Source of the DNA: a virus
Direction: 5' to 3' (one strand)
IMG/VR virus record: IMGVR_UViG_3300033388_005371
Location: 7,025-71,024 of that record
DNA length: 64,000 nucleotides
The notes below the pieces were generated by a model that ran no database searches, was not told the origin of the DNA, and was given only the letters and a program-made list of their open reading frames with translations. Position 1 is the stretch's first letter. Each line of letters opens with the position of its first letter. Positions 6,708-41,890 of the stretch are shown piece by piece. The position numbers were made by a program, and so were the translations under genes.

Positions 6708-7316
6708 ATGTGTGTAAATAAATTTTCAAAAACGATAAAAATTGGTGACAATGTTAAAATTGGTGACAATGTTAAAATTGGTGATTACTGTATTATTGGA
6801 GATAATGTGGTGATTAGTAATGGTGTTATGATTGAACCGTTCACAATTATTGAAAGTGGTGTTAAATTAAATGATAACACTAAAATTGGTTCACACACAA
6901 TACTACATAAAAACTCAATTTTTGGTGAAAACACTATAATAGGACCATATTGTGAAATTGGTGCAGATTTATTAGTTGGGTCAAATTGTATCATACAGGG
7001 TAGAAACAGAACAGCCAATGAGTGCACTATTGAGGATAATGTAACCATTAAATACGGAACAATATTAACATCAAAAGTCTTATTAAAAAAGAATTCTTTT
7101 TTGGGACCAAACGTTATAACTTTAGGGTCAACACATGAACGTATAACCAAACACGGTACCACTATAGGTGAAGATTGTTTTATTGGTGCTGGTACAATAA
7201 TAAATAGTCAAACTATAATCGGGGACAATGTAGTAACTGGGGCACATAGTTACGTAAATAAGGATATTAAAGATTCTGGAATATATGTTGGTACACCTAT
7301 AAAAAAAATTAAATAA
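6708..7316 (+). CDS. Left-handed beta-helix (hexapeptide) acyltransferase
   Basis: Repeated (V/I)xIGxx hexapeptides, IGEDCFIGAG, YVGTP. Confidence 0.85.
   Translation: MCVNKFSKTIKIGDNVKIGDNVKIGDYCIIGDNVVISNGVMIEPFTIIESGVKLNDNTKIGSHTILHKNSIFGENTIIGPYCEIGADLLVGSNCIIQGRNRTANECTIEDNVTIKYGTILTSKVLLKKNSFLGPNVITLGSTHERITKHGTTIGEDCFIGAGTIINSQTIIGDNVVTGAHSYVNKDIKDSGIYVGTPIKKIK
6736..6784 (+). repeat. 18-bp tandem repeat encoding KIGDNV
   Basis: taaaattggtgacaatgt about 2.7 copies. Confidence 0.8.
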
Positions 7317-7318
7317 TT

Positions 7319-7822
7319 ATGTGGATAATAGATGATAAAAATAATAAAATACATGAGACCGCAATAATATGTGATAACGTAACATTAGGGTCTAATAATA
7401 TAATCTACCCATACTGTGTTATTGGCATGCTTGGATTCATAAGAGGTAAAGATGAAGGTACTGGTGAAATAATTATTGGTGATAATAATAAACTTGGTAA
7501 TCATGTCATAATTATGTCTAGTTTTGAAGGTAAGACTATAATCGGTAATGATAATTTAATTATGAATTATGTAAATATTGGTCACGATGTCATTATTGGT
7601 AGTAATAATGAAGTAGGTCCTAGAAGTATTCTTGCTGGATGGTCATCTATTGGTGATAATAATAAATTAAAAATAGCGGTTAATGTCAGAAATAGGGTTA
7701 AAATTGGTAATACCAATATTATCGGTATGTCATCCAATGTTGTTTCTAACATAGATAGTGACACACTATCATACGGTAACCCATGTAAGTTTGTAAAACC
7801 TTTGATTGATGGAAGATATTAA
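7319..7822 (+). CDS. Hexapeptide acyltransferase (LpxA/PglD-like)
   Basis: IHETAII, VNIGHDVIIG (conserved His), YGNPC. Confidence 0.85.
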   Translation: MWIIDDKNNKIHETAIICDNVTLGSNNIIYPYCVIGMLGFIRGKDEGTGEIIIGDNNKLGNHVIIMSSFEGKTIIGNDNLIMNYVNIGHDVIIGSNNEVGPRSILAGWSSIGDNNKLKIAVNVRNRVKIGNTNIIGMSSNVVSNIDSDTLSYGNPCKFVKPLIDGRY

Positions 7823-8816
7823 AGTAAACCCATTAATCGCAACAGTGATATGGGGTAGATTTGATTTATTTAAAATATTCGTTAAACATTATCAACAATT
7901 TGGATTTGACATTCTAGTTATAGGTAGTGAAGGTAAATCTAGTAGGGATTTATGTGAAAATCTAGGTTGTATATATATCGAACACCCAAACACCCCACTA
8001 ACAAAAAAATTCAACAAAAGGGTTGAGTATTTTATGAAACACAAAGAATACACACATCTTTTTATGGTTGGAAGTGATGATTTTCTTGACAAAAAAGGTA
8101 TGGAATTACTTTTAAGACACAGTAAAACATACGATATCGTTCAATGGAATGACATTTACTATTATAACATGGTAACTAACGAAACTATATACTCCTACGG
8201 TTACAAAGGGACAAGACGTAATGGTGAACCCTTAGCACCAGGTCGATGTATTAGCAGGAAAGTAATTGAAAAATTAAATGGTTCATTATGGGGTGTTAAC
8301 ACTAATTCATCTCCAGACTCTAAATTATGGGCCAACTTAAAAAAGAACAACAATAGTATAACATTATCATGTAGGGATAATTCAGTAATATTAGTTGATG
8401 TTAAAACACCTAAAAATAAAAACTCTTTCGATAAAATCATAACTTACGGTATTAAAGCTGGTGTTGATGGTGAAACTAATATGGATATTGTTGACATGTT
8501 AAATGAAGCCAAACTAAAATTAGACCCGTTGAGTAACTTAATTGATAGGAATAAGGTAAGGTCTAAAATTTTAAAAAAAATAGACAATACAAATTATAAT
8601 CAACCTAAAAATATTAAGGAAAAACGAAAAATAGAAAAGGAAAGTAAATTAATCGAACAGAGAAAGAAAACATTAGCTAAAAATAAAAGTAGGAAACCTA
8701 AACACACTAAAGTTAAAAGTAATAATATTGATTTAAAGAAAAAGTTTACCAGTGAGGTACAACAACTTAAAAAAAAAAAGACTCTAACAAACGGGAGACA
8801 AAGACCGATAAGATAA
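7806..8816 (+). CDS. GT-A-like glycosyltransferase with a Lys-rich tail
   Basis: TVIWGR, VIGSEG, NTPLTKKFN, MVGSDDFL, GRCISR. Confidence 0.6.
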   Translation: MMEDIKVNPLIATVIWGRFDLFKIFVKHYQQFGFDILVIGSEGKSSRDLCENLGCIYIEHPNTPLTKKFNKRVEYFMKHKEYTHLFMVGSDDFLDKKGMELLLRHSKTYDIVQWNDIYYYNMVTNETIYSYGYKGTRRNGEPLAPGRCISRKVIEKLNGSLWGVNTNSSPDSKLWANLKKNNNSITLSCRDNSVILVDVKTPKNKNSFDKIITYGIKAGVDGETNMDIVDMLNEAKLKLDPLSNLIDRNKVRSKILKKIDNTNYNQPKNIKEKRKIEKESKLIEQRKKTLAKNKSRKPKHTKVKSNNIDLKKKFTSEVQQLKKKKTLTNGRQRPIR

Positions 8817-21574: not shown

Positions 21575-23362
21575 TTATCTTAATTCTGCAATGTTGAATG
21601 TTGGAATACCGTCAACTCTTACGTGTCCGTAGAATCTATTGTTAACAACTTTCTTCGCATATCTTGTCATAATCCCCTTCACTGGTGCGAAGTTAAATGG
21701 ATTGTACATTGTAGGTGTTAATTGCATTGGTACGTAAGGTGCATAAATGTACCCTGTATCTAATAATGACTTACCTTTGTGACCGATAATCATTGAGTTA
21801 GCTGGAGCGTAAGGGTCTCTATATACTTGGTATCTACCAGATAATGAACCTACTCTCTCAATTCCCATGTTATATTGGTCTTGCTCAGGAGAAGCATCAC
21901 TTACGTGGAAGTACTCTAAATCATCCATTACTGCTGAGATTTCAGAAGAAACAACAATGAAGTTGGCTCCACCTCTCAAAGTAGACTTATGGATTTGTGC
22001 AGAAATTTGATTAACTTTAGTAATTAAAGTTTGGTTCCACTCTTTTTGTGTATATGGTGATGCAGCAGAAGAAGCTTTTCTCCATCCGTTGTAATCCCAT
22101 CTTAATTGCCATGCAGCAGCTTTTCTCAAATCTCTTAAGATTTCTCTATCGATTTCAGCAGCAACTTGCTCAGAAAGCATCGCAGTTAATTCAGCTTCAG
22201 CATCGATGTTGTGGAATGCACTAACATCTTGAGCTAATTCTGGTGACCATGTTGCTCTTAATTTTCTTTCTTCAACAGAAACAACAACTTCATCAAGTTT
22301 GAATGAAACCTCACCAAGCTCAGTTTCTAACTCTAAAGAAGCATATTCTGCCCATGAAGCTACGAAATCAGCAGAAGTAGCACCAGTAAGTGTAGTTCCA
22401 ATATAACCATCGTAAGTTTCAGTTACAGTAGCAGGGTGACTTAAATCAGCCTCTAAATATATGTTCCCTAAAGAATCACAAATATCATCATACTCAACAA
22501 TACCTTTACCGTATTTGTTTGTCACCAATCTAAATGGGATTTCAGCGTTAGCTGCAATAATCTCAACACCATCAGCATCAATAAATGGTGTAGAACCGTT
22601 AACAATCTTAAGTGATGCTAAGAACGACTCAGTATCCATGTTGTTACCATCTGGTCCAGTTAATCTACCCTTGTCATTTCCAGCTCCACCAGTGAATCCA
22701 GATACTCTTAACATAACGTTTCTTAAAGAACCGTCTGTAGATAATGCAGATGCTGAAGCATCAGCTTGGTCAGTAAACTCACCATTAGCACCCATAGTAA
22801 CGATTGTTACATTACCAGCAACAATAGTGATTTCACCCTTAGAAGCATCAAATAAACCATCATTGTAATAGATATCGTAAAGGTTCTTTGCAGCGAAATT
22901 AGTTAACGCACAACCAGCAGAAGCAGTAACACAATCTGGTAATTGGTCAGCCATAGATGTGTGTGCAGACAATGATGCATTACCTGTTAAATGTGGGTTA
23001 CCGTAGTTACCAGCATTATCTGTTCTATCAGATGTTTGTGGTACAAAGAAGAACAATTTACCAATAGGCATGTTCATTGCTTGTACTGAAACGATATCAT
23101 TCGCTAAAAGTTTAGAGAATACTCTCCTTACAATAGGAAATACTACTGTCTCGAAAGACCCAGAAGAATCTGCTGTAGTTGATTCGTTTAATAAATGAGA
23201 CGCTTCATTTTCATATAATTGAGCGATATTCTCTTTTACGTGTCCTTTAAGTCCCTCTAAGAAACCTAAACCTTCCCATTTTTGTTGAGTTTGTTGACGT
23301 ACTTGTTTCATGTGGTTTAATCCGATATTTCCGATTTCTCCAGATGTTAATAAATGATTCAT
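21575..23362 (-). CDS. Major capsid protein, T4 gp23 family, with a central insertion
   Basis: PIVRRVF..LLANDIVSVQAM, RKLRATWSPELAQD, HNIDAEAEL, EIDREI, GYIYAPYVP, GIMTRY. Confidence 0.95.
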   Translation of the reverse strand: MNHLLTSGEIGNIGLNHMKQVRQQTQQKWEGLGFLEGLKGHVKENIAQLYENEASHLLNESTTADSSGSFETVVFPIVRRVFSKLLANDIVSVQAMNMPIGKLFFFVPQTSDRTDNAGNYGNPHLTGNASLSAHTSMADQLPDCVTASAGCALTNFAAKNLYDIYYNDGLFDASKGEITIVAGNVTIVTMGANGEFTDQADASASALSTDGSLRNVMLRVSGFTGGAGNDKGRLTGPDGNNMDTESFLASLKIVNGSTPFIDADGVEIIAANAEIPFRLVTNKYGKGIVEYDDICDSLGNIYLEADLSHPATVTETYDGYIGTTLTGATSADFVASWAEYASLELETELGEVSFKLDEVVVSVEERKLRATWSPELAQDVSAFHNIDAEAELTAMLSEQVAAEIDREILRDLRKAAAWQLRWDYNGWRKASSAASPYTQKEWNQTLITKVNQISAQIHKSTLRGGANFIVVSSEISAVMDDLEYFHVSDASPEQDQYNMGIERVGSLSGRYQVYRDPYAPANSMIIGHKGKSLLDTGYIYAPYVPMQLTPTMYNPFNFAPVKGIMTRYAKKVVNNRFYGHVRVDGIPTFNIAELR

Positions 23363-23392: not shown

Positions 23393-24841
23393 TTAATTTT
23401 TTGGCGTTTCCACCCTTTTAATTAAATCTATTATTCTGTGTGTTGAAGCATCAACGTAAGCTGTGTTTTCATTTAATCGTTTAGAAACACTACTTCCAGC
23501 TTCTTTAGAAATTTTATTTTCTATCGCTTCATTGATTGGTGTTTTTTTAGTCAATTCAGATGCGATTGTTTTATATAACCTTTTTGATTCTTTGATAGTT
23601 GATACCTCATTATCAAATCTTGCAATAATTGCTTCCTTTTCCACTTTAGTTGTTGAGTGTTCAGTAAACAACCTTGTTACGTTGGTTAAATTAGTATTAA
23701 AAACAACTGTTTCCCCTAACATAGTTCTAAACTTTTTAAGTGCACCCTTAAATTCAGAGTTTTCTTGTTTTAATCGTTTAGATTCAGCTAAAAGTTTGTT
23801 GTATTTTTTAACAGTTTCCTCAAGTTTTTCATTTGTGTGCGCAGTACCAACATATTTAACTTTACCACCAACTTTTTTAGTCTCATCAACAACCTCTTCT
23901 TCATTTTCATCAATAGCTTCTTCTTTCTCCATAATGTGGTCAGCGTGATTATCACCACCTTTTTTACCATTATCGTCAAATCCACCTTTAAGATTGTCAC
24001 CAGCCCAGTTATCATCATTTTCATTTCCGACTTTAGCTTTTTGACCTTCGATGTCACCAGTATTAGGAGCCTTAGCTTCACTACCCATAGTCACATCAGA
24101 CGTTGATGTTCTTGGTTTACCGTTTGCAGTTGCACCAATACTTGTCTCTTCTGTTATTTCTTCATTTTCAGAAACCTCTTCCTCTTCTTCAAGTGTTACT
24201 TCATAAACAACACCCTCACCTAGACCTTCTTCGTAAGGAGTCTCAGTTTCAGTTTCTTCGTACTCACTATCAACACCCATCCCCATTTCTGAGTCAAGTC
24301 CTAACCCCATTTCTGGTGCTAATCCTTCTACTGATTCATCATTACCACCTAATTTAACATGGTACTCAGAACCACTAGGGTCTTTGATATGTACTTCATT
24401 ATCGGATACTACTTCGATTTCATCATCACCAGATAATTTCTTATATACAGAAATTACTTCCTCGTCTGATGCCCCAGTCATGTCCATTTCATAATCCTCT
24501 ACAGATTCTTCTTCACCACCATAGTTCATTTCACTATCTTCCGTGTCGTCCATACCAGCCTCTTCGTAGTCGTCAGATGCCACATCCAATTCTAATTCGT
24601 CTTCTTCAGTTTCATCACCAGCAACTTCATCATCACTAGCATCTTCTAAATCTAACTCATCAGCATCTTCAACATCCTCTTCCTCATAGTCATCTTCTTG
24701 CAAAGATTCTTTAACCAAACCATCAATTTCTTCTCTAGCTACACTACGAAGTATTTCTTTAGTATTGGAATTTAAAGCTTCTTGAATCCTATTCGCATCC
24801 AATAAAGCTTCTTCAATTATCGACTTTTTCTTTTCGGCCAT
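23393..24841 (-). CDS. Prohead core/scaffolding protein (gp22-like position)
   Basis: Very acidic, coiled-coil C-terminus, lies between protease and capsid genes. Confidence 0.75.
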   Translation of the reverse strand: MAEKKKSIIEEALLDANRIQEALNSNTKEILRSVAREEIDGLVKESLQEDDYEEEDVEDADELDLEDASDDEVAGDETEEDELELDVASDDYEEAGMDDTEDSEMNYGGEEESVEDYEMDMTGASDEEVISVYKKLSGDDEIEVVSDNEVHIKDPSGSEYHVKLGGNDESVEGLAPEMGLGLDSEMGMGVDSEYEETETETPYEEGLGEGVVYEVTLEEEEEVSENEEITEETSIGATANGKPRTSTSDVTMGSEAKAPNTGDIEGQKAKVGNENDDNWAGDNLKGGFDDNGKKGGDNHADHIMEKEEAIDENEEEVVDETKKVGGKVKYVGTAHTNEKLEETVKKYNKLLAESKRLKQENSEFKGALKKFRTMLGETVVFNTNLTNVTRLFTEHSTTKVEKEAIIARFDNEVSTIKESKRLYKTIASELTKKTPINEAIENKISKEAGSSVSKRLNENTAYVDASTHRIIDLIKRVETPKN

Positions 24842-24964: not shown

Positions 24965-25663
24965 TTAGTCATCAAGTAAAAATTTATTTAACTTGTCAAC
25001 TAATAGTGGTTTTTTCTTCTTAGTATTTTCCACAAACGGTCTCGCTTCTTGAGAACCTTTAAACATATAAGCACCTGGGGTTGACGGACTAGTAACAATA
25101 TCCCAACAGATTAATTCAAAATCATCTTGCACAATATTTTTTCCTTTTATTTCTTTAAGTGAACCAACACCTCTAGAAGAAACACCAACCCTAATTCCTT
25201 TTCTCAACATGTTGGCAACCCTATCACCCTCACATGAAATAATTCCTTGGGTAACAAAACCTGGTGACATTAAGATTTCTATTTCACCCACAAGTGTTTT
25301 ACCTTCCCACCATATCTTAGTGATTTCATGTGACACCCTATCGTTAGAAATTATAGATGATTCTGGGTGGTCCGATTCACCAATAGCTGACCTATTGTCA
25401 ATTAATACTTGATAAGCTTCCGCTTGTTTTCTTAATAAATGTTCTGGGTATATTCTTCCGTTTCTATTCTCAACTCCGTACTTCTGTAGGACTACAAATA
25501 ACTTCAATGGCTCAGCCATCACTATTCCACCTTTTTCTAACTTCTTAACCTCCGTAATGAAAGGTTTGTTACGAATGTCGTTTGGTGCGATAAACCCCGC
25601 ATCACTTTCAATCATAATACCGAAACCAGTTTTCCCAGCTTTTAATAATTTTATATCAGACAT
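24965..25663 (-). CDS. Prohead protease, T4 gp21 family
   Basis: NRNGRIYP, GESDHP, VSHEI, GVSSRGVGS, DFELICWDIVTSPSTPGA. Confidence 0.93.
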   Translation of the reverse strand: MSDIKLLKAGKTGFGIMIESDAGFIAPNDIRNKPFITEVKKLEKGGIVMAEPLKLFVVLQKYGVENRNGRIYPEHLLRKQAEAYQVLIDNRSAIGESDHPESSIISNDRVSHEITKIWWEGKTLVGEIEILMSPGFVTQGIISCEGDRVANMLRKGIRVGVSSRGVGSLKEIKGKNIVQDDFELICWDIVTSPSTPGAYMFKGSQEARPFVENTKKKKPLLVDKLNKFLLDD

Positions 25664-26656: not shown

Positions 26657-27430
26657 TTATTCGCTTAAATCATTTTTTAATTCAATTAGTTTACTAATAT
26701 CACTTATAAAACTTTCTGAAATAAACTCTAATCTAAGTAACCTATCTTTTACTGCCAGTAATTTTTCCTTAGAATCAATATCAGACTCAACTAGATTTTT
26801 ATCAACTAAATCAATACATTCTCTTGAAAGATTTTCATAGATTTCTTTTTTACCATCTTCATCAGATTCTAAGATGGATTTAAAAACACTTTTTTCATTC
26901 TCACTTAATTCTGAGTACTTATCGTTAAACTTATCAACCGCAATATTTGATAAAACACTATTTGGTAAGTGATTCATCTCGACTGATTCTTTAACTTCAT
27001 TTTTTTTAATATAATCAACAACCCCACTTAATGATTCAACTATTGTATCAACATTTTTTGGTTTTTTATCAGTGAATATTAATGATGTGATATTCTCATG
27101 TAACTGACTGAAATCATTAGATTCTAAAGGTAATTTATCTTCCATAAGTAAAGCTTTAGTTAAAGACATGTTTGCCTCTCGTATTTCATCTTTTGAGTAT
27201 TTAGATAAAACATCAATGTTTGTCTTAACAAACTCAGTTGCTTTATGTTCATTTGTTTCTACCTTACCCTCTATATTGTTGTATATTAAGAATTGTGCTT
27301 TAAGGATTTTATTACCCTTAATAGATTTAACATACTCTTTAAATATTTTTTTCTTTTTTGTGTCATTTGTTGCAATCGCCTCAACCAATAATGAATTGAA
27401 TATATTTTTAATTTTCCCGAAATTTTGCAT
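26657..27430 (-). CDS. Putative head-assembly protein
   Basis: 257 aa, helical, downstream of the portal gene, late motif at 27447. Confidence 0.55.
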   Translation of the reverse strand: MQNFGKIKNIFNSLLVEAIATNDTKKKKIFKEYVKSIKGNKILKAQFLIYNNIEGKVETNEHKATEFVKTNIDVLSKYSKDEIREANMSLTKALLMEDKLPLESNDFSQLHENITSLIFTDKKPKNVDTIVESLSGVVDYIKKNEVKESVEMNHLPNSVLSNIAVDKFNDKYSELSENEKSVFKSILESDEDGKKEIYENLSRECIDLVDKNLVESDIDSKEKLLAVKDRLLRLEFISESFISDISKLIELKNDLSE

Positions 27431-31644: not shown

Positions 31645-31735
31645 ATCTTTTTATAATAAATATGTTGAACCCCCTAAAAACAAAAAAACCCCATGAATGG
31701 AGTTTTTTTTTTGTTGTGTAATATATTTTTATTTG

Positions 31736-32959
31736 TTACAAATTAGACAAATCAATATCGTCTAATTCATCAAAACCAAAAGAATCATCATCATTGTTCA
31801 TTTCTTTTATTGAAGCTTCATAATCATCCCTTTTAATATCCTCATCAATATTAGATACAATCTCTTTAATTTTATCTTTACCTTCTTTAGACCCCAACAT
31901 AATTTCCCTCATTGTGTGGTTAAATTCTTCAGTTGGTAGTGAAACTAAATCAACATATATGTGGTGTTTTTTATCAAAATCTTTAGAATCAATACAATCA
32001 GTAAATCTTTCCCATATTGGCGCACCCAACCTCATATCCCAAGGTTCAGCATTAATATAGTCAGCCTTACCTAAAACATACTCAGTTAACTTTTGGTCTT
32101 CTGGTAACCCATGCATAGATAAAATTTCCATAACTCCTTTAACTAATTCGTGAATTAACACTGGAAATACAACTGCTTGTGCGTGTATTATTGGTTTACC
32201 ATCAACGAATTCAACCTTAACAACCCCACCAGCTTCCCTTTGCATAGTATCATCCATGGTCAAATAACCATAATCAGCCGCCGCCATCATTTTAGCGTAT
32301 TTATTTGGTAATGTTGGATTAATACCTAATAATTCTTTATCAGCTAAATGAAACATGTGGTGACCTTTCTTGGCAGCACCTTGAGACATAGCATTAATAA
32401 ATCTTCTTTTATATACCTCACCATTTGCTGAAGTAACACTATCATGATTATCAAATTCCATACTTTCAATTCTAACTGGTGAAGGGTTTTTCCTAATACC
32501 TTCAATATCAATGTCTCTTTTAAGTTCTGCAATAATTTCAACATCATCTTCACCCATATCATATTCTTTTCTAACCATATTAATTGCTAACTCTTGTAAT
32601 ACTTCTTTACTAGAATCCTCCAACTTCATACAATCACTAATTAATGGCATCATGTTTTTAACCGCATCCATTGGGTCAGCAGTTTCAGAATCAAATTGTC
32701 TCTTATAGTTTTTTAGTACATCACCAAATCTTTTGGATATAATCTTTTCTTCAAAGTGTGACTCATCACTATCTGGAAATATTGGGTGTACACCAAGTGT
32801 GTGACTCCTATCTCTCAATTGTTTAGCTAAGTTAGGATGTACCCTTTCTGAATGTCCTTCCTCATATACAATTCTACTTTCATTAACTAACTTTGTTGGT
32901 TTACCTTTAAGCATTTCTCTCTCTAATGCTTTTTTAATTATATCTTCTAACCTACCCAT
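31736..32959 (-). CDS. Hypothetical head-associated protein
   Basis: 407 aa; FPVLIHELVKG is HE-like but not a full HExxH. Confidence 0.6.
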   Translation of the reverse strand: MGRLEDIIKKALEREMLKGKPTKLVNESRIVYEEGHSERVHPNLAKQLRDRSHTLGVHPIFPDSDESHFEEKIISKRFGDVLKNYKRQFDSETADPMDAVKNMMPLISDCMKLEDSSKEVLQELAINMVRKEYDMGEDDVEIIAELKRDIDIEGIRKNPSPVRIESMEFDNHDSVTSANGEVYKRRFINAMSQGAAKKGHHMFHLADKELLGINPTLPNKYAKMMAAADYGYLTMDDTMQREAGGVVKVEFVDGKPIIHAQAVVFPVLIHELVKGVMEILSMHGLPEDQKLTEYVLGKADYINAEPWDMRLGAPIWERFTDCIDSKDFDKKHHIYVDLVSLPTEEFNHTMREIMLGSKEGKDKIKEIVSNIDEDIKRDDYEASIKEMNNDDDSFGFDELDDIDLSNL

Positions 32960-33525
32960 TATTTTTTATTTTTTAATATATGTTCCACCATCGCTGATTT
33001 TGTCATTCTTGGTCTAGTATTTTCTAATTTAACCCCTTCCCCATTTGATTGTTTACCTAACTCTTTTAACGAAGATAAGACTGATGTTAATTTAACCCTA
33101 GGAACACCAATTCTTTCCGCAAACGCAGCGATTAACTCAGCCTTTTCAACTGGTTTATCTATTTTTTTAATTACAGCTTCAAATTGCCCTAGATTTAATT
33201 TATCCATAAATCTTTGCACATCAGCCTGTAATTTAGGGACATCAGTTGTTTCCGTTTCACCAATATTCTTTCTACCCATTGGTAACTTACCCTTTTTAGG
33301 TTTTTCAGCTGGAATGTCTTTTCTACCCATTGGTAACTTACCCTTTTTAGGTTTTTCAGCTGGAATGTCTTTTCTACCCATTGGTAAAGTTTCATCAACA
33401 ATCTTAACGATTGTATCATCATCTAAATCATCTTCCATTTCCTTATATTTATCGGAACTCATGACAACATTTTTTTGGTTACTCATTTCTACTAATGCTC
33501 TCCCTATCTTCTTTTTTTGGTCCAT
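32959..33525 (-). CDS. Hypothetical protein with an internal 17-aa tandem repeat
   Basis: LPMGRKDIPAEKPKKGK x2.3. Confidence 0.6.
   Translation of the reverse strand: MDQKKKIGRALVEMSNQKNVVMSSDKYKEMEDDLDDDTIVKIVDETLPMGRKDIPAEKPKKGKLPMGRKDIPAEKPKKGKLPMGRKNIGETETTDVPKLQADVQRFMDKLNLGQFEAVIKKIDKPVEKAELIAAFAERIGVPRVKLTSVLSSLKELGKQSNGEGVKLENTRPRMTKSAMVEHILKNKK
33269..33387 (-). repeat. 51-bp perfect tandem repeat, about 2.3 copies
   Basis: Units start at 33269, 33320 and 33371 (partial). Confidence 0.9.
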
Positions 33526-33928
33526 TACTTTTTACTTTATATTCTAATACGAAATCTTTTTCGTATAATGAGTCCTCAACGGACTTTATTGTTTGTCCGA
33601 ACATAAAACTAAGTCTACGTTCTGGATACACCTCATAATCAGTTATATTCTCCCAAGCTAAAGCGATTATACCATCGATAGAATCCCAAACAGCAAAAGT
33701 ATCACTATTTTGAACTGTATCTAACTTAAAATCTGGTGTTAAAACACCCACAGCTTTAATTAAATCTTTCCTTGGTGGACTTGGCTGACCAGAAGCAGGA
33801 TATAAGTCCCAATCCTCACCATCAACATCTTTTGTCGTGTCTGAAAAGATAAACTCATAATTAGTTTCACCCTTCCAATCACTACCTAAAACATTCACAT
33901 ATATTAAAAACAAACCTTCTTTATCCAT
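33479..33928 (-). CDS. Hypothetical protein
   Basis: 149-aa ORF in the late operon. Confidence 0.6.
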   Translation of the reverse strand: MDKEGLFLIYVNVLGSDWKGETNYEFIFSDTTKDVDGEDWDLYPASGQPSPPRKDLIKAVGVLTPDFKLDTVQNSDTFAVWDSIDGIIALAWENITDYEVYPERRLSFMFGQTIKSVEDSLYEKDFVLEYKVKSNGPKKEDRESISRNE

Positions 33929-33929
33929 A

Positions 33930-36134
33930 TTAATTTATTTCTTCAATATAATCACTACTAATATCACTTAATTCTAAGTTAGTGTCTGGATTACCATAAA
34001 ACTCAACACCCAGAACATAAGTTTTACCATCTGGTGAATCAATTGATTCATAATTATAAACCCAAGGTTCATCATAAGCCAATGGTTTATCAATATATTC
34101 ACCAGTGTTTTCGAATTTTAAATCAATCTCACTATCACCTAAATTAACCTTTACAATAGCTATGTTTTTATCTAAAAATTTAGTGTTAATTATTTTACCG
34201 TTAATGTCATTTACCTCAGACAAAACACCATTATCGGTATTAGCTTTTGGCTCAACTTTTGGTTGTATGGTTGGCCTGAAAGGTTTTTGTCTTCTAGTTG
34301 GTTTAACATCTGGAGCAGTTTTTGGTTTAACTTTTGGTTTAACCTCAGTTGCCTCAATTAACTTCTTCATAATATCCTTTTTACTTACAAAGTTATACAT
34401 TTTTTTACCATTTTCCAAATCCTCACCTAAAATATTTGAAACAGACCTTGATGACCACATTTTACATGACCAATAACCTGCACTGGTTTTATCTTTCTTT
34501 TGGTCACATTTATGTCTAGCTCTAAACGATTTTCTCCTTTCTGGGTCGTCTCTTTTAATTTCCATATTTTTATCACCGAAATTAACTTTAACCACATTAC
34601 CTTTATCATTTTTAACATAAACCTTATATTTTTTAACATCACCTCTACTTGGTTTATTAAGTTTAACTTTTTTACCTTTATATTCGGCTTCACTGATGTA
34701 CTCACCTTCAGATAGTGCATTAATAAATGATTCTTCTATAGATTCACTTTTCTTACCCCAACTCTTACCTTTACCTTTAGATTTACACGCTGATGGTGTT
34801 GGTCTACATGCTGGATACTTAGCTCTTTTCTCACCATCCTTTCTACCACATGGTTTACATTTATTTTTACCATCAACTTCCCTACAAGTGTTACAATCAA
34901 CCCAACCACTAGAACTACCTTCACCACCTTGTCTACTAAACCATTTATGTAAACCTTCTTTTTCCTCAGTAGTTAATGATTCTTCATATTCAGTGTTTTC
35001 TATAATAGAATTAGATTCAACACTTTCATTCTTCCAAATCTTACCTTTCCTACATTTTACGACAGCACCAGATGCATAAGCTGACGGCCACGTATCATAT
35101 TTTCTTTTTGCTATCCTAGTACACCTATCATCTTTTTTTTCATCAGATTTTTTTTCATTAACCGTTTGACTAGACCAAAGCTTAATTTCACCATTTTCTG
35201 TGGTTAAAAAATCAGCGACTTCTTCCGCATCATCAGCAGATGTGGATATATGGTCATCAGCCCAACCCATACCCTTTAATTTATTAACCCTATCGGATTT
35301 ATCCATAGATAATATTTTTTCAGCATCAGTCTTCATGTTTTTTAGGTTTTTAACCATAGTAGTATCGTCTTCACCAATATTGGTATTTAAACTATTGTGG
35401 TTACCAAACCTAGAACTTTCCTCCATTTCATCACCTTCACCATCAGTATTAGTGTCAACATTGACATCACCACCTTTGCCGTCAGTATCAACATCAACAT
35501 TAACATCAATATTTTCACTATTTTTTCCAGATGATTTAACTTTTTTAATAATATCTGATTGGTCATCGCTATCCATTTGACCAGTATGTGTTGCCGACAA
35601 CACAGAGTTAACCACAAACTTCTCTAAATCAAAATCTGGTTGACCCTCTTGGTCACTGTACGACCTAAGTGATTGACCTATTTTACCTGCTAATTGTTGA
35701 ATATATTTATCTGGCTCAGTCTCTTCATCAGCTTCCACACCAGCTTCAAATGGTTCATCATTAAATGGTTTATCACTTGGTTTATTACCACCATTATCAC
35801 CAAACTCATCACCACCTAAGTCATCACCGAACTCATCACCGAACTCATCACCACCTAAATCTTCTAAACCATCCAAGGAATCACCAACTGAAGGTTCCGA
35901 ATTTGGAACCTTCAATTTGAATTTTGTTTCTTTTATATCATCTAAGTTATAACCATCTTCTTCGTCCGCAAATAAACCAGTAGACATATTGTCAGAATGG
36001 GTTTCATTTACAACTAACTTATAATCATTAAAAGATGGGTTGTTTTTGTAAGAATTAACGTCAGACATCAACGCTTCAAGAGAATTGAATTTTTTTGGTT
36101 TACTAAAATAAGGTTTATCGTTTTGATAAACCAT
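33930..36134 (-). CDS. Modular putative internal head protein; probable -1 frameshift extension of 36179..36949
   Basis: Acidic linkers separate Cys/basic modules (WPSAYASG; WVDCNTC...YPACRP; FGD...RRKSFRARHKC...AGYWSC); the frame stays open upstream to the A10 run. Confidence 0.65.
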   Translation of the reverse strand: MVYQNDKPYFSKPKKFNSLEALMSDVNSYKNNPSFNDYKLVVNETHSDNMSTGLFADEEDGYNLDDIKETKFKLKVPNSEPSVGDSLDGLEDLGGDEFGDEFGDDLGGDEFGDNGGNKPSDKPFNDEPFEAGVEADEETEPDKYIQQLAGKIGQSLRSYSDQEGQPDFDLEKFVVNSVLSATHTGQMDSDDQSDIIKKVKSSGKNSENIDVNVDVDTDGKGGDVNVDTNTDGEGDEMEESSRFGNHNSLNTNIGEDDTTMVKNLKNMKTDAEKILSMDKSDRVNKLKGMGWADDHISTSADDAEEVADFLTTENGEIKLWSSQTVNEKKSDEKKDDRCTRIAKRKYDTWPSAYASGAVVKCRKGKIWKNESVESNSIIENTEYEESLTTEEKEGLHKWFSRQGGEGSSSGWVDCNTCREVDGKNKCKPCGRKDGEKRAKYPACRPTPSACKSKGKGKSWGKKSESIEESFINALSEGEYISEAEYKGKKVKLNKPSRGDVKKYKVYVKNDKGNVVKVNFGDKNMEIKRDDPERRKSFRARHKCDQKKDKTSAGYWSCKMWSSRSVSNILGEDLENGKKMYNFVSKKDIMKKLIEATEVKPKVKPKTAPDVKPTRRQKPFRPTIQPKVEPKANTDNGVLSEVNDINGKIINTKFLDKNIAIVKVNLGDSEIDLKFENTGEYIDKPLAYDEPWVYNYESIDSPDGKTYVLGVEFYGNPDTNLELSDISSDYIEEIN

Positions 36135-36178
36135 TTTACTTAAATCACTTTTACTCCAAACAACCTTAATACTTTCAT

Positions 36179-36949
36179 TTAGACTTTTTTTTTTAAAGCC
36201 TCTTGTAGTGCTTTAATTTCTGTTTCAGACATACCATTAACCATATTTAGTAACTTGTCTTCACTTTCTTCAATCGATAAAGCTTTACCAATCTTAAGTC
36301 TATTATTCACTAAATAACCATGTGACTCTTTAATATTTTCTTCACCAGTAATCATTTTATCGATAGCTGATTCATCTTCAGATAATTCAACATCCTCACC
36401 CATAATTTCAGTATCATGACCTTGCTCCCCAGCTTTGTGTTTACCTTGATTAGTTAAACTATCAACAGGGTCTTTATCAAAATCACCATCTAAATTATCA
36501 CCAGACGTAACTTTATCAATATCGTAGTTGGTCCCTTCCATTTCACCAACGAAACCAATACCACCAGCACTAGATTCCATTAAATTATCATTTTCAAACA
36601 CATTAACTTTATCTCCACCGAATGATTCATTTATACTTAAGAATTTAAGGTTAAGTTGTTTTATTGCCTTTGCATATGTTGGATACGCTTCACTTTTTTT
36701 ATTTTTAAGACCACCAATATAGTTAAAATCTTCACTTATCAAACCACTATTTTTTTCAGATGTCTTAATATAATATTCATGATTTTCTCTAACAATACCA
36801 TATACAACACCGTTAGGTGCAATCTTAGTAAGTTCCACAACTGAGTTACTTGTTGATTCATTAATAGTACCACCCATTAACTCTCTCATACGGTCTAATA
36901 CTTGATTACCCTTAAGACCTTTAGGGTTGATTCTGTTATTTGTTTTCAT
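36179..36949 (-). CDS. Putative internal head protein (N-terminal part of the frameshift fusion)
   Basis: 256 aa, ends GCT TTA AAA AAA AAA GTC TAA; late motif at 36966. Confidence 0.65.
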   Translation of the reverse strand: MKTNNRINPKGLKGNQVLDRMRELMGGTINESTSNSVVELTKIAPNGVVYGIVRENHEYYIKTSEKNSGLISEDFNYIGGLKNKKSEAYPTYAKAIKQLNLKFLSINESFGGDKVNVFENDNLMESSAGGIGFVGEMEGTNYDIDKVTSGDNLDGDFDKDPVDSLTNQGKHKAGEQGHDTEIMGEDVELSEDESAIDKMITGEENIKESHGYLVNNRLKIGKALSIEESEDKLLNMVNGMSETEIKALQEALKKKV

Positions 36950-37509: not shown

Positions 37510-38619
37510 TTAATTAGAAAGTGGGGCTTTAATTTCTGGATGTGATTGATAATTTAAAATCTTAACATTCTCATAACAATAGTCGAAGATACTATCAGCC
37601 CTCCCCAACTTCAACTGAGGTAGTGGTTTAGCACTCCTAGATAACAACTCTTCCACTTGTTCCATGTGGTTATTATACAAGTGTACATCACCTAATGACC
37701 CAATCAATTCATTAGGTACCATATTAACTTGCTGTGCAATCATATGTAGTAATAACGCATAACTCGTAATATTAAATGGTAACCCTAAGAACGTATCAAC
37801 AGACCTTTGGTTCCACATTAGTGATACCTTGTACTTTGGTATATCAGCTCTCTCGTAATCCGATTCGTAATGGTCTTCCATAACAAATGTACCTTCCCTC
37901 ATCATTGCTCTATCAATACTAATCGCCCAGTTATTATCCGCACAATGTTGTACGTACAAGTTCTCACGCTCTTCGTTTGTTAGTTCTACCGTATTCAATT
38001 GGAATCCGTAGTGGCATGGTGGTAACGTCATTTTATCTAAATCACCCACATTCCATGCATTAACCATAATTCTCCTTGAGTTAGGGTTATCCTTAAGGGT
38101 ATCAATTGCCTTTTGAATTTGATTGTGACCTTTATTAAGCCCTTCAATCTCATCACCAGATACAATCTTATATCCACCCCAATCAACCCATTGTTTACCA
38201 TATACAGGACCCAATTCACCCCACTTCTTAGCGAACTCACCATCAATTTTAATTTTGTTGATGAATTCTTCTTTTGTTAATAAATTATCATGTTGAAGTA
38301 CATCATGTGATTCAACTGGTGGTAGATTAGTAATATATTTCTTATAAGCATCTCCAACCCAAATCATATTCCCTTGCTGAACTAATGGTTTAATATTAGT
38401 ATCACCATTTAAGAACCATAATAATTCTGTAGTAATACCCTTCATAAACATTTTTTTTGTTGTTAACATTGGGAAACCATCACCCATATTAAACCTAATC
38501 ACCCTACCAAAGACAGAAACTGTACCCGTCCCAGTACGGTCTTCTTTTTTAACCCCATTAGTTATTATATCTTTAAGTAAGTCTTGATAAACTTTATCAA
38601 CCTTATCCATTTTTTTCAT
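37510..38619 (-). CDS. thyA: Thymidylate synthase
   Basis: DRTGTGT, ELLWFL, LGPVYGKQW, SRR, LPPCH, QRSVDTFLGLPFNI, GDVHLYNNH. Confidence 0.96.
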   Translation of the reverse strand: MKKMDKVDKVYQDLLKDIITNGVKKEDRTGTGTVSVFGRVIRFNMGDGFPMLTTKKMFMKGITTELLWFLNGDTNIKPLVQQGNMIWVGDAYKKYITNLPPVESHDVLQHDNLLTKEEFINKIKIDGEFAKKWGELGPVYGKQWVDWGGYKIVSGDEIEGLNKGHNQIQKAIDTLKDNPNSRRIMVNAWNVGDLDKMTLPPCHYGFQLNTVELTNEERENLYVQHCADNNWAISIDRAMMREGTFVMEDHYESDYERADIPKYKVSLMWNQRSVDTFLGLPFNITSYALLLHMIAQQVNMVPNELIGSLGDVHLYNNHMEQVEELLSRSAKPLPQLKLGRADSIFDYCYENVKILNYQSHPEIKAPLSN

Positions 38620-39034
38620 TATTTAATTTAGAGATTAAGAACTGAACTCTAGTTAACATTGAGTCATCTATAGTTTCGTTTTTACTATAACCTTTTATTG
38701 TCGTATCCATCGCTTTAATCAAGTCACCTTCTATCGCTTTAATTTCAGCAACTTGGTGTTTCTCAACTTCAGCAATGATTTTTGCTGGGTCAATATCTTC
38801 ACCTTTAGTAACTGGGTGTTTTTTAATGTACGTATTTAAAATTTTCCCTTGGGACTCAGCAATTTCGAATCTTGTATAATCCGTAGCTGGAACACCTGTG
38901 TACATATAATTAGTACCTTTATTAAATGTGATTGTCAACGTTTCGTTCACTTTATCATACTTTGACGCAAGTATGTTTGATGATTTGTAAATTGCTTTTA
39001 CAATCCCTTCTTTTTCTACTTTTTTTAAAATCAT
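38603..39034 (-). CDS. KTSC-domain protein
   Basis: SSNILASKYD...LTITFNKG..YMYTGVP...F..AESQGK..N..IK. Confidence 0.8.
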   Translation of the reverse strand: MILKKVEKEGIVKAIYKSSNILASKYDKVNETLTITFNKGTNYMYTGVPATDYTRFEIAESQGKILNTYIKKHPVTKGEDIDPAKIIAEVEKHQVAEIKAIEGDLIKAMDTTIKGYSKNETIDDSMLTRVQFLISKLNNEKNG

Positions 39035-39388: not shown

Positions 39389-41890
39389 ATGAAGAGGGAT
39401 ATAACACCTAAAGTTAAATTAATCATGAAAAATGCCTTTGCTGAAGCAAAGGCTTTTGACGATACCAAACTTAGGCCAGAACACATCATGATAGCTATAT
39501 TAAATCATGATAATAATAAATGTGTTAGTATTTTAAGAGATATGAATGTTGATTTATTAAATTTATACGATAAAATAAGTGAACATTTAAAAGGTGTTGA
39601 TATAACACCTAGAATTACAATGACAAAAAGAAAATTACCACCTAGTGATGTCACAGCTGAAATTTTTAAAACTGTCGATTTAGTGTGCGATGAGTTGGGT
39701 CACTCATCTATCGACACCAGACACGTTATGTTAGCGATTTTAGAAAACGACACACCAACGACCAACATACTAAATAATATAGGTATTAATTACAAAAATT
39801 ATAAAAAAGAAATTATGAATGAAAATGAAAATATAAAAGGTACGTTCGATGAGTTTGAAGATGATATAAACGACACACCTAAAAAGTCTAATAACAAAAA
39901 AAAGAAAAAGGTTAATAGTAAAACCCCAGTACTAGATAACTTTTGTAGAGATGTATCTAAATCTGCTGAGGACGGTTTAATTGACCCAGTAGTTGGTAGA
40001 AAGTCAGAAATACAAAGGGTTTCCACCATCCTTTCTAGGAGAAAAAAAAATAACCCAGTATTGATTGGTGAACCAGGTGTTGGTAAAACATCTATAGTTG
40101 AGGGTTTAGCCTCATTAATTAAAGATAAAAAAGCACCTAGGGTTTTATTAAAAAAAAGAGTCTTATCATTAGATTTACCATCAATAGTTGCAGGAACAAA
40201 GTATCGTGGGCAATTTGAAGAAAGAATGAAAGCTATATTAGAAGAACTTAGAGCTAACTCAGATGTTATTTTATTTATTGATGAGTTACACACAATGGTT
40301 GGTGCTGGTAATGCTAGTGGGTCACTAGACGCATCCAACATACTTAAACCAGCATTAGCCAGAGGTGAAATACAAGTGATTGGTGCAACCACATTGGATG
40401 AATATAGGGAAAATATTGAAAAAGATGGTGCACTTAAAAGGAGATTTCAAGAAGTATTAGTTGAAGAACCCACTAATGAGGAAACTAAAGAAATACTTAT
40501 CAATATTAAAGATAAATATGAGGAACACCACAAGGTAAGATACACTAATGAATCGATTGAAGAATGTGTGAAGATGGCTGATAGATATATTTCAGATAGG
40601 GCCATGCCAGATAAAGCAATAGATATACTTGATGAAGCTGGTGCAATTACTAACGTAAACATTGATGTCCCAGAAAATATTAAAAAACTTGAAGCTCAAA
40701 GAGAACAGATTGAAGAACAAAAAATACTTGTTGTTTCAAAACAACAATATGAGAAAGCAGCGAAACTTAGGGATAGTGAGGTGAAAATTGAGGAATCACT
40801 TGAAAAAGCTAAGAAACAATGGATTGATACACTAGATAAAGAACCCACACTAATTACTACTGATTTAATTTCAGAAGTTGTATCCAACATGACTGGTATC
40901 CCACTTAACAAAGTATCTACTGAAGACACTAAACATTTAGCAAATATGATTGAAGATTTAACTGGTACGGTTATCGGTCAAGACGATGCTGTTGAAAAGG
41001 TTAGTAAAGCAGTCAAAAGGAGTAGACTTGGCATTAGAAAAGGTGGGAAACCTATTGGTTCATTTATATTTCTAGGACCAACTGGTGTAGGAAAGACATA
41101 CCTTGCCAAACTATTATCAGAATACGTATTCGGTGATAAAGAATCAATGGTTAGAATTGACATGTCAGAATACATGGAAAAATTCTCAGTATCTAGATTG
41201 ATAGGTGCACCTCCAGGGTATGTGGGTTATGAAGAAGGTGGTAAATTAACGGAAGCAATTCGTAGAAAACCTTACTCAGTAGTACTTTTTGATGAAATTG
41301 AGAAGGCACACCCAGACGTGTTTAACTTATTATTACAATTATTAGATGAAGGCCAATTAACTGATTCATTGGGTCGTAAAATTGACTTCAAAAACACGAT
41401 GATTATTATGACATCAAATGTTGGTGTTAAAGAAATGAATAGTTTTGGTTCAGCTGTCGGATTCTCAACTGGTGACACCTTAGCTAAGGAAGAAAAAAGG
41501 TCCCACACTATTCTAGAAAAAGCACTTAAGAAAAAATTTCCACCAGAATTTCTTAACCGTTTAGATGATACAATAATTTTCAACTCATTAAGTGAAAAAG
41601 ATATTCAACAAATTATTGAACTTGAGATGACTGATGTTGAAGCTAGAATGTTTGAACTTGGTTACAAAGTTAAGTTGGATAAAAAAGGTATGGAATATAT
41701 AGCCAAACAAGGTTATGAACCAGAATTTGGGGCTAGACCATTAAGTAGAGCGATTCAAAGGTATGTTGAAGACCCAATAGCTGACGAAGTAATTAAGGGA
41801 AATATTAAAGAGGGGGATACAATCAAAATAACTTACAGTAAAGCTAAAGATAATATGGTTATTAAAGTAACCAACCCCAATAAAAATTAA
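39389..41890 (+). CDS. clpC: ClpC-like Hsp100 AAA+ ATPase
   Basis: Clp N-domain, GEPGVGKT, FIDELH, UVR-like QQYEKAAKLRD, GPTGVGKT, RIDMSEYME, VGF loop, GARPL. Confidence 0.92.
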   Translation: MKRDITPKVKLIMKNAFAEAKAFDDTKLRPEHIMIAILNHDNNKCVSILRDMNVDLLNLYDKISEHLKGVDITPRITMTKRKLPPSDVTAEIFKTVDLVCDELGHSSIDTRHVMLAILENDTPTTNILNNIGINYKNYKKEIMNENENIKGTFDEFEDDINDTPKKSNNKKKKKVNSKTPVLDNFCRDVSKSAEDGLIDPVVGRKSEIQRVSTILSRRKKNNPVLIGEPGVGKTSIVEGLASLIKDKKAPRVLLKKRVLSLDLPSIVAGTKYRGQFEERMKAILEELRANSDVILFIDELHTMVGAGNASGSLDASNILKPALARGEIQVIGATTLDEYRENIEKDGALKRRFQEVLVEEPTNEETKEILINIKDKYEEHHKVRYTNESIEECVKMADRYISDRAMPDKAIDILDEAGAITNVNIDVPENIKKLEAQREQIEEQKILVVSKQQYEKAAKLRDSEVKIEESLEKAKKQWIDTLDKEPTLITTDLISEVVSNMTGIPLNKVSTEDTKHLANMIEDLTGTVIGQDDAVEKVSKAVKRSRLGIRKGGKPIGSFIFLGPTGVGKTYLAKLLSEYVFGDKESMVRIDMSEYMEKFSVSRLIGAPPGYVGYEEGGKLTEAIRRKPYSVVLFDEIEKAHPDVFNLLLQLLDEGQLTDSLGRKIDFKNTMIIMTSNVGVKEMNSFGSAVGFSTGDTLAKEEKRSHTILEKALKKKFPPEFLNRLDDTIIFNSLSEKDIQQIIELEMTDVEARMFELGYKVKLDKKGMEYIAKQGYEPEFGARPLSRAIQRYVEDPIADEVIKGNIKEGDTIKITYSKAKDNMVIKVTNPNKN

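Follow-up and report, generated by a model that had tools for sequence, protein, structure and literature searches.

The P1-P2 locus

The 71-kb IMG/VR virus record IMGVR_UViG_3300033388_005371, of which a stretch of 64,000 nucleotides (nt; positions 7,025 to 71,024, hereafter the window) was analysed, carries on its minus strand a short and a long open reading frame (ORF) that meet at a run of ten A's. The short ORF, P1 (36179..36949), encodes 256 amino acids (aa) and ends GAG GCT TTA AAA AAA AAA GTC TAA, with its stop codon at 36181-36179. The A10 run (36185..36194), the proposed recoding site, is read in the 0 frame as TTA AAA AAA AAA GTC. The -1 frame has a stop codon at 36215-36213, is open from 36212 and reads STTRGFKKKSLNESIKVVWSKSDLSK into the 734-aa ORF that is annotated from the ATG at 36134 (36134..33930). 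As a whole, the -1 frame ORF (33930..36212) contains 760 codons plus a stop, and its product is referred to here as P2. Bounded by the -1-frame stop on one side and the 0-frame stop on the other, a change of frame must occur within 36182..36212, i.e., from the first codon past the -1-frame stop to the last 0-frame sense codon (the shift window). The stop-free -1-frame bridge across the junction reads FKKKSLNESIKVVWSKSDLSKMVYQ and includes L-N-E (36174..36182), a candidate T4-type protease site that is encoded across the 0-frame TAA. Joined at the run, the two frames are predicted to give a P1-P2 fusion of 254 + 751 = 1005 aa.

An earlier note on this DNA had read the locus as a programmed -1 shift yielding a head polyprotein of about 1006 aa. 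The coordinates, the A10 run, a T TTA AAA heptamer (36197-36191), the bridge peptide and a hairpin, GGTTTATC-AAAAC-GATAAACC (36112..36132), are all present as it described them, and apart from the length, computed here as 1005 aa, the fusion is predicted as before. The hairpin is not supported as a signal. It lies 53 nt from the A10 run, the 85-nt stretch with the GGTTTATC/GATAAACC stem has a z-score of -2.15 with 7 of 200 shuffles folding equally well, and no structure beside the run is conserved. Both the hairpin and the ATG at 36134 fall into an insertion of about 58 aa directly 3' of the junction (approximately 36009-36173), between L-N-E and a second triplet, V-N-E. This insertion is specific to the window and absent in the closest relative (L001, P1 83% identical). 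It looks like an extra small module placed between two candidate cleavage sites.

The A run by itself is not beyond chance in the window: matches to A9 on both strands number 38 against 18.7 expected, the majority of them outside the listed ORFs. It is the conservation of the run among relatives that is beyond chance. Another A10 run lies at 31703-31712 on the minus strand, after the stop codon of a 407-aa ORF and before the terminase gene begins. An A11 run at 8769-8779 on the plus strand was considered as a second recoding site and rejected; it encodes the C-terminal KKKK of the ORF 7806..8816 (...QQLKKKKTLTNGRQRPIR, then the stop), and the other frames close immediately. Stop-codon reassignment at the P1 stop was also dropped, because readthrough of the TAA remains in the wrong frame.

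Conservation of the junction

A scan of IMG/VR with P1 as query identified 80 loci (L001-L080). Together with the window they make 81 sequences. Clustering at 90% identity of P1 gives 59 clusters, and P1 identity to the window is as low as 44%. In all 79 loci with a P2 homolog, this homolog is in the -1 frame when compared with that of P1; in the 80th, L038, the same frame is open for 25 codons before the contig ends. An A run flanked by the stops of the -1 frame and the 0 frame is found in 81 of 81 sequences (A10 in 70, A9 in 9 and A11 in 2). The run starts in each of the three codon phases, in 65, 13 and 3 sequences, respectively, and a difference in its length goes with a different phase; the -1 relation is held throughout and the length of 9-11 is kept. 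Across the family the shift window ranges from 10 to 61 nt, the narrowest cases consisting of the run and three more bases, and the -1 ORF, where complete, ranges from 266 to 760 codons. The earlier note had suggested checking whether homologs keep the KKK-stop and the -1 overlap; they keep the overlap and, within it, an A9-A11 run.

Codon usage also sets the junction apart. Among the Lys codons that overlap the run, 175 of 177 are AAA, and the two AAG exceptions are at its 3' edge. Away from the junction, 40 of the 42 KKK tripeptides in the P1 and -1 ORFs of the 59 cluster representatives contain AAG, despite AAG making up only 17% of the Lys codons in these ORFs outside the junction, which indicates that A9 runs are avoided except at the junction.

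Downstream of the run, the -1 ORF encodes a family motif, K[YF]KLK[LV], that is found in 58 of the 59 representatives (K-F-K-L-K-V in the window, 35907..35924, minus strand) and whose Leu, Lys and Tyr codons vary synonymously. In 47 of 58 representatives the motif precedes the first ATG of this ORF, and in 46 of 58 it precedes every ATG, GTG or TTG. Given that it stands ahead of any start codon there, the -1 frame appears to be translated from the run onward. We therefore consider it highly improbable that P1 and P2 are two separate genes, with P2 starting at its own codon and no fusion formed. The window does have an ATG (36134) 45 nt past the P1 stop, but this codon belongs to the window-specific insertion, and separate genes would leave the conserved coding sequence ahead of any possible start, the frame relation fixed in 79 of 79 loci and the single ORF of a sister clade (see below) without explanation.

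The difference between A10 and A11 is also a typical homopolymer mistake, and the window comes from a metagenomic record. Nonetheless, an assembly or sequencing error, or a recent pseudogene, is almost certainly not what is seen here and is refuted as a general explanation: the out-of-frame state is found in 80 other contigs from many samples, and A9, A10 and A11 runs are each compensated so that the -1 relation holds. A homopolymer miscall is rejected because the -1 layout and the run are kept in 81 sequences across 59 clusters. One independent 151-nt contig of a relative, from a search of four DNA contig sets, spans the run without an insertion or deletion, a result too weak to rely on. The earlier note had allowed for a single continuous A11 ORF; as a general state this is excluded, but in-frame variants do occur rarely, as described next. 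The -1 shift joining a short protein to a long downstream one, as first proposed, is backed by the constant frame, by the universal run and by these in-frame fusions. Taken together, we conclude that the junction is very probably a conserved recoding site, whether by a polymerase or by a ribosomal route.

In-frame fusions and a single-ORF sister clade

A search of a large protein collection for longer homologs of P1 yielded 56 proteins. Twenty-four of them end in KKK plus 0-9 residues and are longer forms of P1 with the same ending. In another 24, a single ORF encodes the P1 N-terminal domain, an acidic linker, a motif of the KKVIKVDAP type and the conserved core of P2, and both KKK and the run are missing. 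These single-ORF homologs (P0020, P0029, P0031, P0033-P0041, P0043-P0046, P0048-P0051 and P0053-P0056; loci L081-L090) form one side of a branch on the N-domain tree, with a Shimodaira-Hasegawa-like approximate likelihood ratio test (SH-aLRT) support of 98. Their ORFs are 515-663 aa long, lack the C-terminal helices of P1, the KKK and the inverted-repeat hairpin described below, and are found on contigs of up to about 297 kb.

The remaining 8 of the 56 proteins are in frame, with the junction ...KKK[S/T/D/N]L.E... that matches the predicted trans-frame product. One of them, P0019, equals the 0-frame end of L021 joined to its -1-frame start, and another, P0003, adjoins L004 on the tree. The eight are dispersed among frameshifted relatives, a distribution that requires a minimum of 3 and as many as 6 changes on the tree. 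Each is represented by one member sequence on one or two contigs, and the search selected for long proteins, which enriches fusions; we take them to be either variants in run length or errors of assembly. For two of them, P0003 and P0042, no DNA was found in viral or metagenome contigs. At the level of sequence, the single-ORF proteins and the fusions show the fusion to be the ancestral-type protein, just as the relatives show the layout to be conserved.

Homopolymers are hypermutable, and fusions scattered among frameshifted relatives are what would be expected if the tract changed its length during replication, such that A11 genomes made the fusion and A10 genomes only P1. Phase variation of this kind is nevertheless very unlikely in our view. 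None of the 80 IMG/VR loci is in frame, the eight fusions come from a search for long proteins and are single member sequences, and rare replication slips would give no useful ratio to a lytic phage that presumably needs both products in each cell.

An inverted repeat past the junction

A second element accompanies the recoding site. In the window, a 13-bp inverted repeat (35886..35917, minus strand) overlaps the codons of the K[YF]KLK[LV] motif and is predicted to fold into a hairpin of -19.6 kcal/mol (z -5.8). Over the 58 representatives with the motif, the 75 nt from the motif onward have a mean z of -3.0, with 79% below -2, compared with a mean z of -0.18 for control windows 400 nt further downstream. 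The stems vary in sequence and in the peptide that they encode (e.g., GAKSAP, GGGSATP, PAPAGNAP and VPNSEPS), which suggests that it is the pairing that is conserved. No such structure was found past the equivalent motif in eight sister-clade loci (z -1.63 to +0.80), the motif pattern being unmatched in two more, so the repeat goes with recoding.

The distance from the run to the start of the repeat is 16-48 nt in 40 of 57 representatives; in the other 17, including the window, it is 88-264 nt. It folds equally well on the opposite strand, and no U tract follows it in the sequences checked by eye. RNAalifold gave no consensus pair for 57 aligned repeat regions, because the stems are not in one register, and the repeat was thus evaluated by per-sequence z-scores. 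A comparison with Rfam returned no family match, only sub-threshold, snoRNA-like noise. Three roles can be envisaged for the repeat: it may cap or attenuate unshifted messages in a way that is sensitive to translation, it may block ribosomes from a distance, or it may act as an element of the DNA.

Which machine slips

With moderate confidence, we propose that the -1 shift is made by RNA polymerase slippage that adds one extra A. Since the DNA carries A10, its standard decoding would yield the 256-aa P1. On the T10 template, RNA polymerase would slip and add one A to a fraction of the transcripts; the A11 message would be read L-K-K-K-S-L-N-E and on through the -1 ORF to give the 1005-aa fusion. 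Messages with other run lengths would meet a stop a few codons on, whichever of the other two frames they enter. Slippage on this one gene pair would thus supply a short and a long protein that share their N-terminus, at a set ratio.

Polymerase slippage is favoured on four results, which suggest that the signal is the length of the run: this length is kept at 9 or above, AAG is shunned, no helper element is conserved next to the run and both other frames close fast. A search among sequencing runs for RNA that covers the stretch found none. No sequence has fewer than 9 A's in the run, although 7 would serve a ribosome. The 0-frame stop is 2-24 nt past the run, and in the third frame a stop is reached within 9 codons in all 59 representatives (59 of 59). 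There is no conserved structure 3' of the run, where the proximal 22-40 nt have a mean minimum free energy of -3.3 kcal/mol and a mean z of -0.8, with many at 0.0 (n = 56), nor 5' of it, where the 40 nt before the run have a mean z of -0.28 (n = 59). An upstream Shine-Dalgarno (SD)-like element is likewise not conserved, SD-like 4-mers being present in 20 of 59 representatives. A stem that abuts the run upstream in the window and its close relatives (AAAGC...GCTTT) was tried as a candidate and is not significant family-wide.

Alternatively, the messenger may stay A10 and ribosomes may slip back one base on A AAA AAA, through tandem re-pairing of Lys-tRNA, or slide on the poly(A); we regard this as quite possible, though not probable. 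Runs of A that encode Lys are a classical type of shift site in bacteria. For instance, dnaX uses A AAA AAG as reported in PMC4344849, and ribosome sliding on iterated AAA is described in PMC4363877. Three observations made here weigh against the polymerase route and suit the ribosome. First, every one of the 80 sequences scored (the window and 79 loci, with L038 left out) has A AAA AAA or A AAA AAG in frame within its shift window, and a subset also has T TTA AAA; with such a heptamer in every run, a ribosomal -1 shift is possible. Second, the shunning of A runs elsewhere fits a ribosomal route equally well. Third, the inverted repeat, which polymerase slippage does not need, could be a distant ribosomal stimulator.

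Ribosome collisions promote frameshifting, and in 27 of 57 representatives the stable repeat of the recoding clade starts 30-37 nt past the run, a distance at which a lead ribosome paused at the repeat would place the following ribosome on the run. Against this, a heptamer needs 7 A's, yet the minimum is 9 everywhere; no AAG interrupts the run, save the two at its 3' edge; at the usual spacing of 5-9 nt no structure is conserved, many loci folding to 0.0 kcal/mol; and the upstream SD-like element is not conserved. In 17 of 57 representatives, the window among them, the repeat is as far as 88-264 nt away, and its antisense strand folds as well. The U UUA AAA heptamer that the earlier note had pointed out is confined to part of the family, and it is the A run that is universal.

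Predicted products and candidate cleavage sites

From an alignment of 54 homologs and an AlphaFold2 (AF2) model with a predicted local distance difference test (pLDDT) score of 62, P1 consists of a conserved N-terminal stretch, a small alpha/beta domain (residues ~32-105, pLDDT ~80), an acidic disordered middle and C-terminal helices that end in L-K-K-K-V-stop. The alpha/beta domain is bracketed by two candidate cleavage sites: I-N-E at P1 29-31 (36857..36865) before it and I-N-E at P1 106-108 (36626..36634) after it, both on the minus strand, with [LIVM]-x-E at the respective positions in 52 and 53 of the 54 aligned homologs. The triplet over the 0-frame stop is [LIV]-x-E in 75 of 81 sequences. 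Its L, I or V is forced by the nTA of the stop codon, and its Glu is free.

The AF2 model of the -1 ORF (pLDDT 56) has four folded parts between long disordered stretches that are mostly acidic or Cys/Lys-rich. Numbered from the junction Ser and all encoded on the minus strand, these are a conserved three-helix core (residues 140-220; 35526..35768), also found in the single-ORF sister clade; a helical module (residues 275-330); a basic beta+alpha module (residues 497-560; 34506..34697), which is preceded by I-S-E; and a C-terminal beta-sandwich (residues 660-751; 33933..34208; pLDDT ~90) with no match in PDB at Z of 6 or above. The basic module matches phrog_7595 (E 2.1e-15) and resembles DUF5754 (PF19058), whose full profile (1-49/49) aligns at E 8.2e-4 with 19.8 bits, below the cut-off of 27.4. 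By tblastn the module is found in pelagiphage, roseophage and other records, where it is annotated as hypothetical. In 11 of 11 occurrences, [LIVM]-x-E is present within 22 residues before it, and in the occurrences listed the motif directly precedes (A/S/G)E[YH].G.KV.

The window encodes a prohead serine protease of the T4 gp21 family (24965..25663, minus strand; Peptidase_S77, PF03420, E 3.8e-21), which is the putative processing enzyme. T4 gp21 is reported to cut after L/I-X-E, and N-terminal propeptides of 10-19 residues to target T4 proteins into the prohead core (PMC9026906). Cutting by a T4-type prohead protease is plausible here because the [LIV]-x-E sites are conserved. With confidence neither high nor low, we propose that both products enter the prohead via their common N-terminal part and are cut by the S77 protease at the conserved [LIV]-x-E sites, releasing small domains, several of them basic. 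The L-N-E that the earlier note had marked at the bridge accords with this proposal, given its conservation and the S77 gene. Across P1, the junction and P2, sites of the L/I-x-E kind are conserved at four domain boundaries; the overall enrichment of the motif is unspecific.

Several results count against a head role. The enrichment of [LI]-x-E has a z of about 2 in P1 and P2, and a ClpB-like protein encoded nearby reaches 2.3. For P2, Pfam and PHROGs give only phrog_7595, phrog_727 and the sub-threshold DUF5754, i.e., no head family. A tblastn search with P1 against 50,697 phage records returned no match, and the ESM Atlas only clusters named 'hypothetical protein'. With the AF2 model of P1, Foldseek found nothing in PDB at E of 0.001 or below, and the top hits in BFVD were uncharacterised phage proteins; with that of the whole -1 ORF, the best VIA Z was 5.7 and the Foldseek E values were above 0.07. 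In addition, P1 has no match in Pfam or PHROGs, and the searches of P1 and P2 against Pfam, PHROGs, PDB and BFVD revealed no sequence or fold match to gp22, gp67, gp68, the internal proteins (IPs) or Alt.

Gene neighbourhood

The record is rated 20% complete by CheckV, and the contigs of relatives reach about 360 kb, from which we take the record to be a fragment of a jumbo phage with a G+C content of ~30%. On the minus strand, P2 is followed in the 3' direction by three ORFs without assignment, a T4-type large terminase subunit (TerL) gene and a T4-type portal gene, then by three small ORFs, the Peptidase_S77 prohead protease gene, a 482-aa ORF at the position of a scaffold gene and a gp23-type capsid gene. 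Profile matches to a T4-type head module in the window thus comprise Portal_T4, Gp23, T4-type TerL and Peptidase_S77. Relatives retain the gene order o78-P1-P2-o149-(o188)-o407-TerL: of 58 examined, 57 have o149, 26 have o188, 54 have o407 and 43 have TerL, and 9 show the portal within the fetched flank. This order is one of the points that make a polyprotein targeted to the prohead and processed by the protease a reasonable reading. As listed, the 149-aa ORF (33479..33928) and the 188-aa ORF (32959..33525), both on the minus strand, share 47 nt (33479-33525).

The capsid gene (21575-23362, minus strand) encodes 595 aa, of which the gp23 profile covers residues 331-580 only and not the N-terminal 330. 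[LI]-x-E is in excess in two other minus-strand ORFs of this region, a 257-aa ORF after the portal (26657-27430; 12 against 5.7 expected) and the 482-aa ORF at the scaffold position (23393-24841; 15 against 9.6 expected), which is compatible with T4-type prohead core proteins.

Upstream of the locus are genes for a thymidylate synthase (37510-38619, minus strand), a KTSC-domain protein (38603-39034, minus strand) and the ClpB-like double AAA+ ATPase (39389-41890, plus strand; 833 aa). The thymidylate synthase, at 369 aa against a profile length of 266, probably carries an insertion. Among the 58 relatives, ThyA is retained in 39, the KTSC protein in 38 and ClpB in 36.

Comparison with known systems

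The device works like homopolymer recoding sites and like phage pairs of short and long proteins, with no homology to those gene families. The layout is that of Thermus thermophilus dnaX (tau/gamma), with a long A run, near stops in both other frames and a common N-terminus, and there slippage has been shown to be transcriptional (PMC5009743). As described for Thermus, the long product is zero-frame and slippage leads to the short one, whereas here slippage would lead to the long product, and the gene families are unrelated. Citrobacter rodentium tssM1 and Shigella mxiE and spa13 resemble the locus in having an A tract just before a premature stop (PMC4256274). In that account, the A11 tract of tssM1 undergoes ~20-25% slippage to the longer product and both products are needed; for tssM1, mxiE and spa13, extra A's bring back a long C-terminal part at about 15-55%, an effect that is lost on substitution by AAG, and both forms and their ratio matter (PMC4256274). 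Those are bacterial secretion genes, reported there from single species or small groups, whereas the site described here spans at least 59 clusters from uncultured phages.

Among the known frameshift cases of phages, tail chaperones dominate (PRFect). A literature search of incomplete coverage found nothing on the P1/P2 family or on recoding at an A run in a head module of jumbo phages, which is weak evidence. Short and long structural proteins are made as pairs by the lambda tail chaperone genes G/GT and the T7 capsid genes 10A/10B, and the major head protein of Lactobacillus phage A2 is reportedly also a case of -1 frameshifting. The P1-P2 pair is similar to these in that a short protein and a C-terminally extended one would be made from overlapping frames at a fixed ratio. 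It differs in that they use a heptamer, usually with nearby stimulators, for a modest extension, whereas here at least 9 A's without a conserved neighbour precede a multi-domain extension of ~750 aa.

In retroviral Gag-Pol, the short product is frequent and the long polyprotein rare, both share an N-terminus that targets them to assembly, and a virion protease cuts them later. The likeness to P1-P2 is in outline only, processing here being suggested by motifs; there is no homology, and searches of Pfam, PHROGs and folds found no enzymes in the long part. The core and internal proteins of T4 (gp22, gp67, gp68, IPI-III and Alt) offer a further parallel, with an S77 head module and L/I-x-E sites that bracket small domains (PMC9026906). 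Acidic linkers that alternate with basic modules and a conserved N-terminal stretch that ends in I-N-E are shared as well. Unlike P1-P2, the T4 proteins are encoded by separate small genes with no recoded polyprotein, and the searches of Pfam, PHROGs, PDB and BFVD showed no sequence or fold similarity.

As a speculation that we consider unlikely as a whole, the A run and the clade-specific inverted repeat might form an undescribed two-part ratio device. Polymerase slippage would set the share of A11 messages. The stem would fold only on messages whose translation stops at the end of P1, there capping or attenuating the untranslated P2 part, and would melt on shifted ones. Such a device would dose a Gag-Pol-like head polyprotein by which several small, basic proteins that bind DNA are brought into the capsids of this large group of uncultured jumbo phages for injection with the DNA.

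Implications

These results lend good support to a recoding site that had not been annotated before and that a large group of uncultured jumbo phages has conserved. In every record, gene callers treat the locus as a pair of hypothetical genes with no relation to each other and place the start of the second wrongly, at an internal ATG. Once the recoding is recognised, the two become one protein family with a defined architecture that is linked to the single-ORF sister clade. With 9-11 A's kept across deep divergence, no helper near the run and A runs shunned elsewhere, the site is a natural test bed for polymerase versus ribosomal slippage. If the products are indeed head contents cut by the prohead protease, T4-like jumbo phages would dose packaged proteins from one message, and the basic modules, which are found in many marine phages, would become candidates for packaged and injected proteins.

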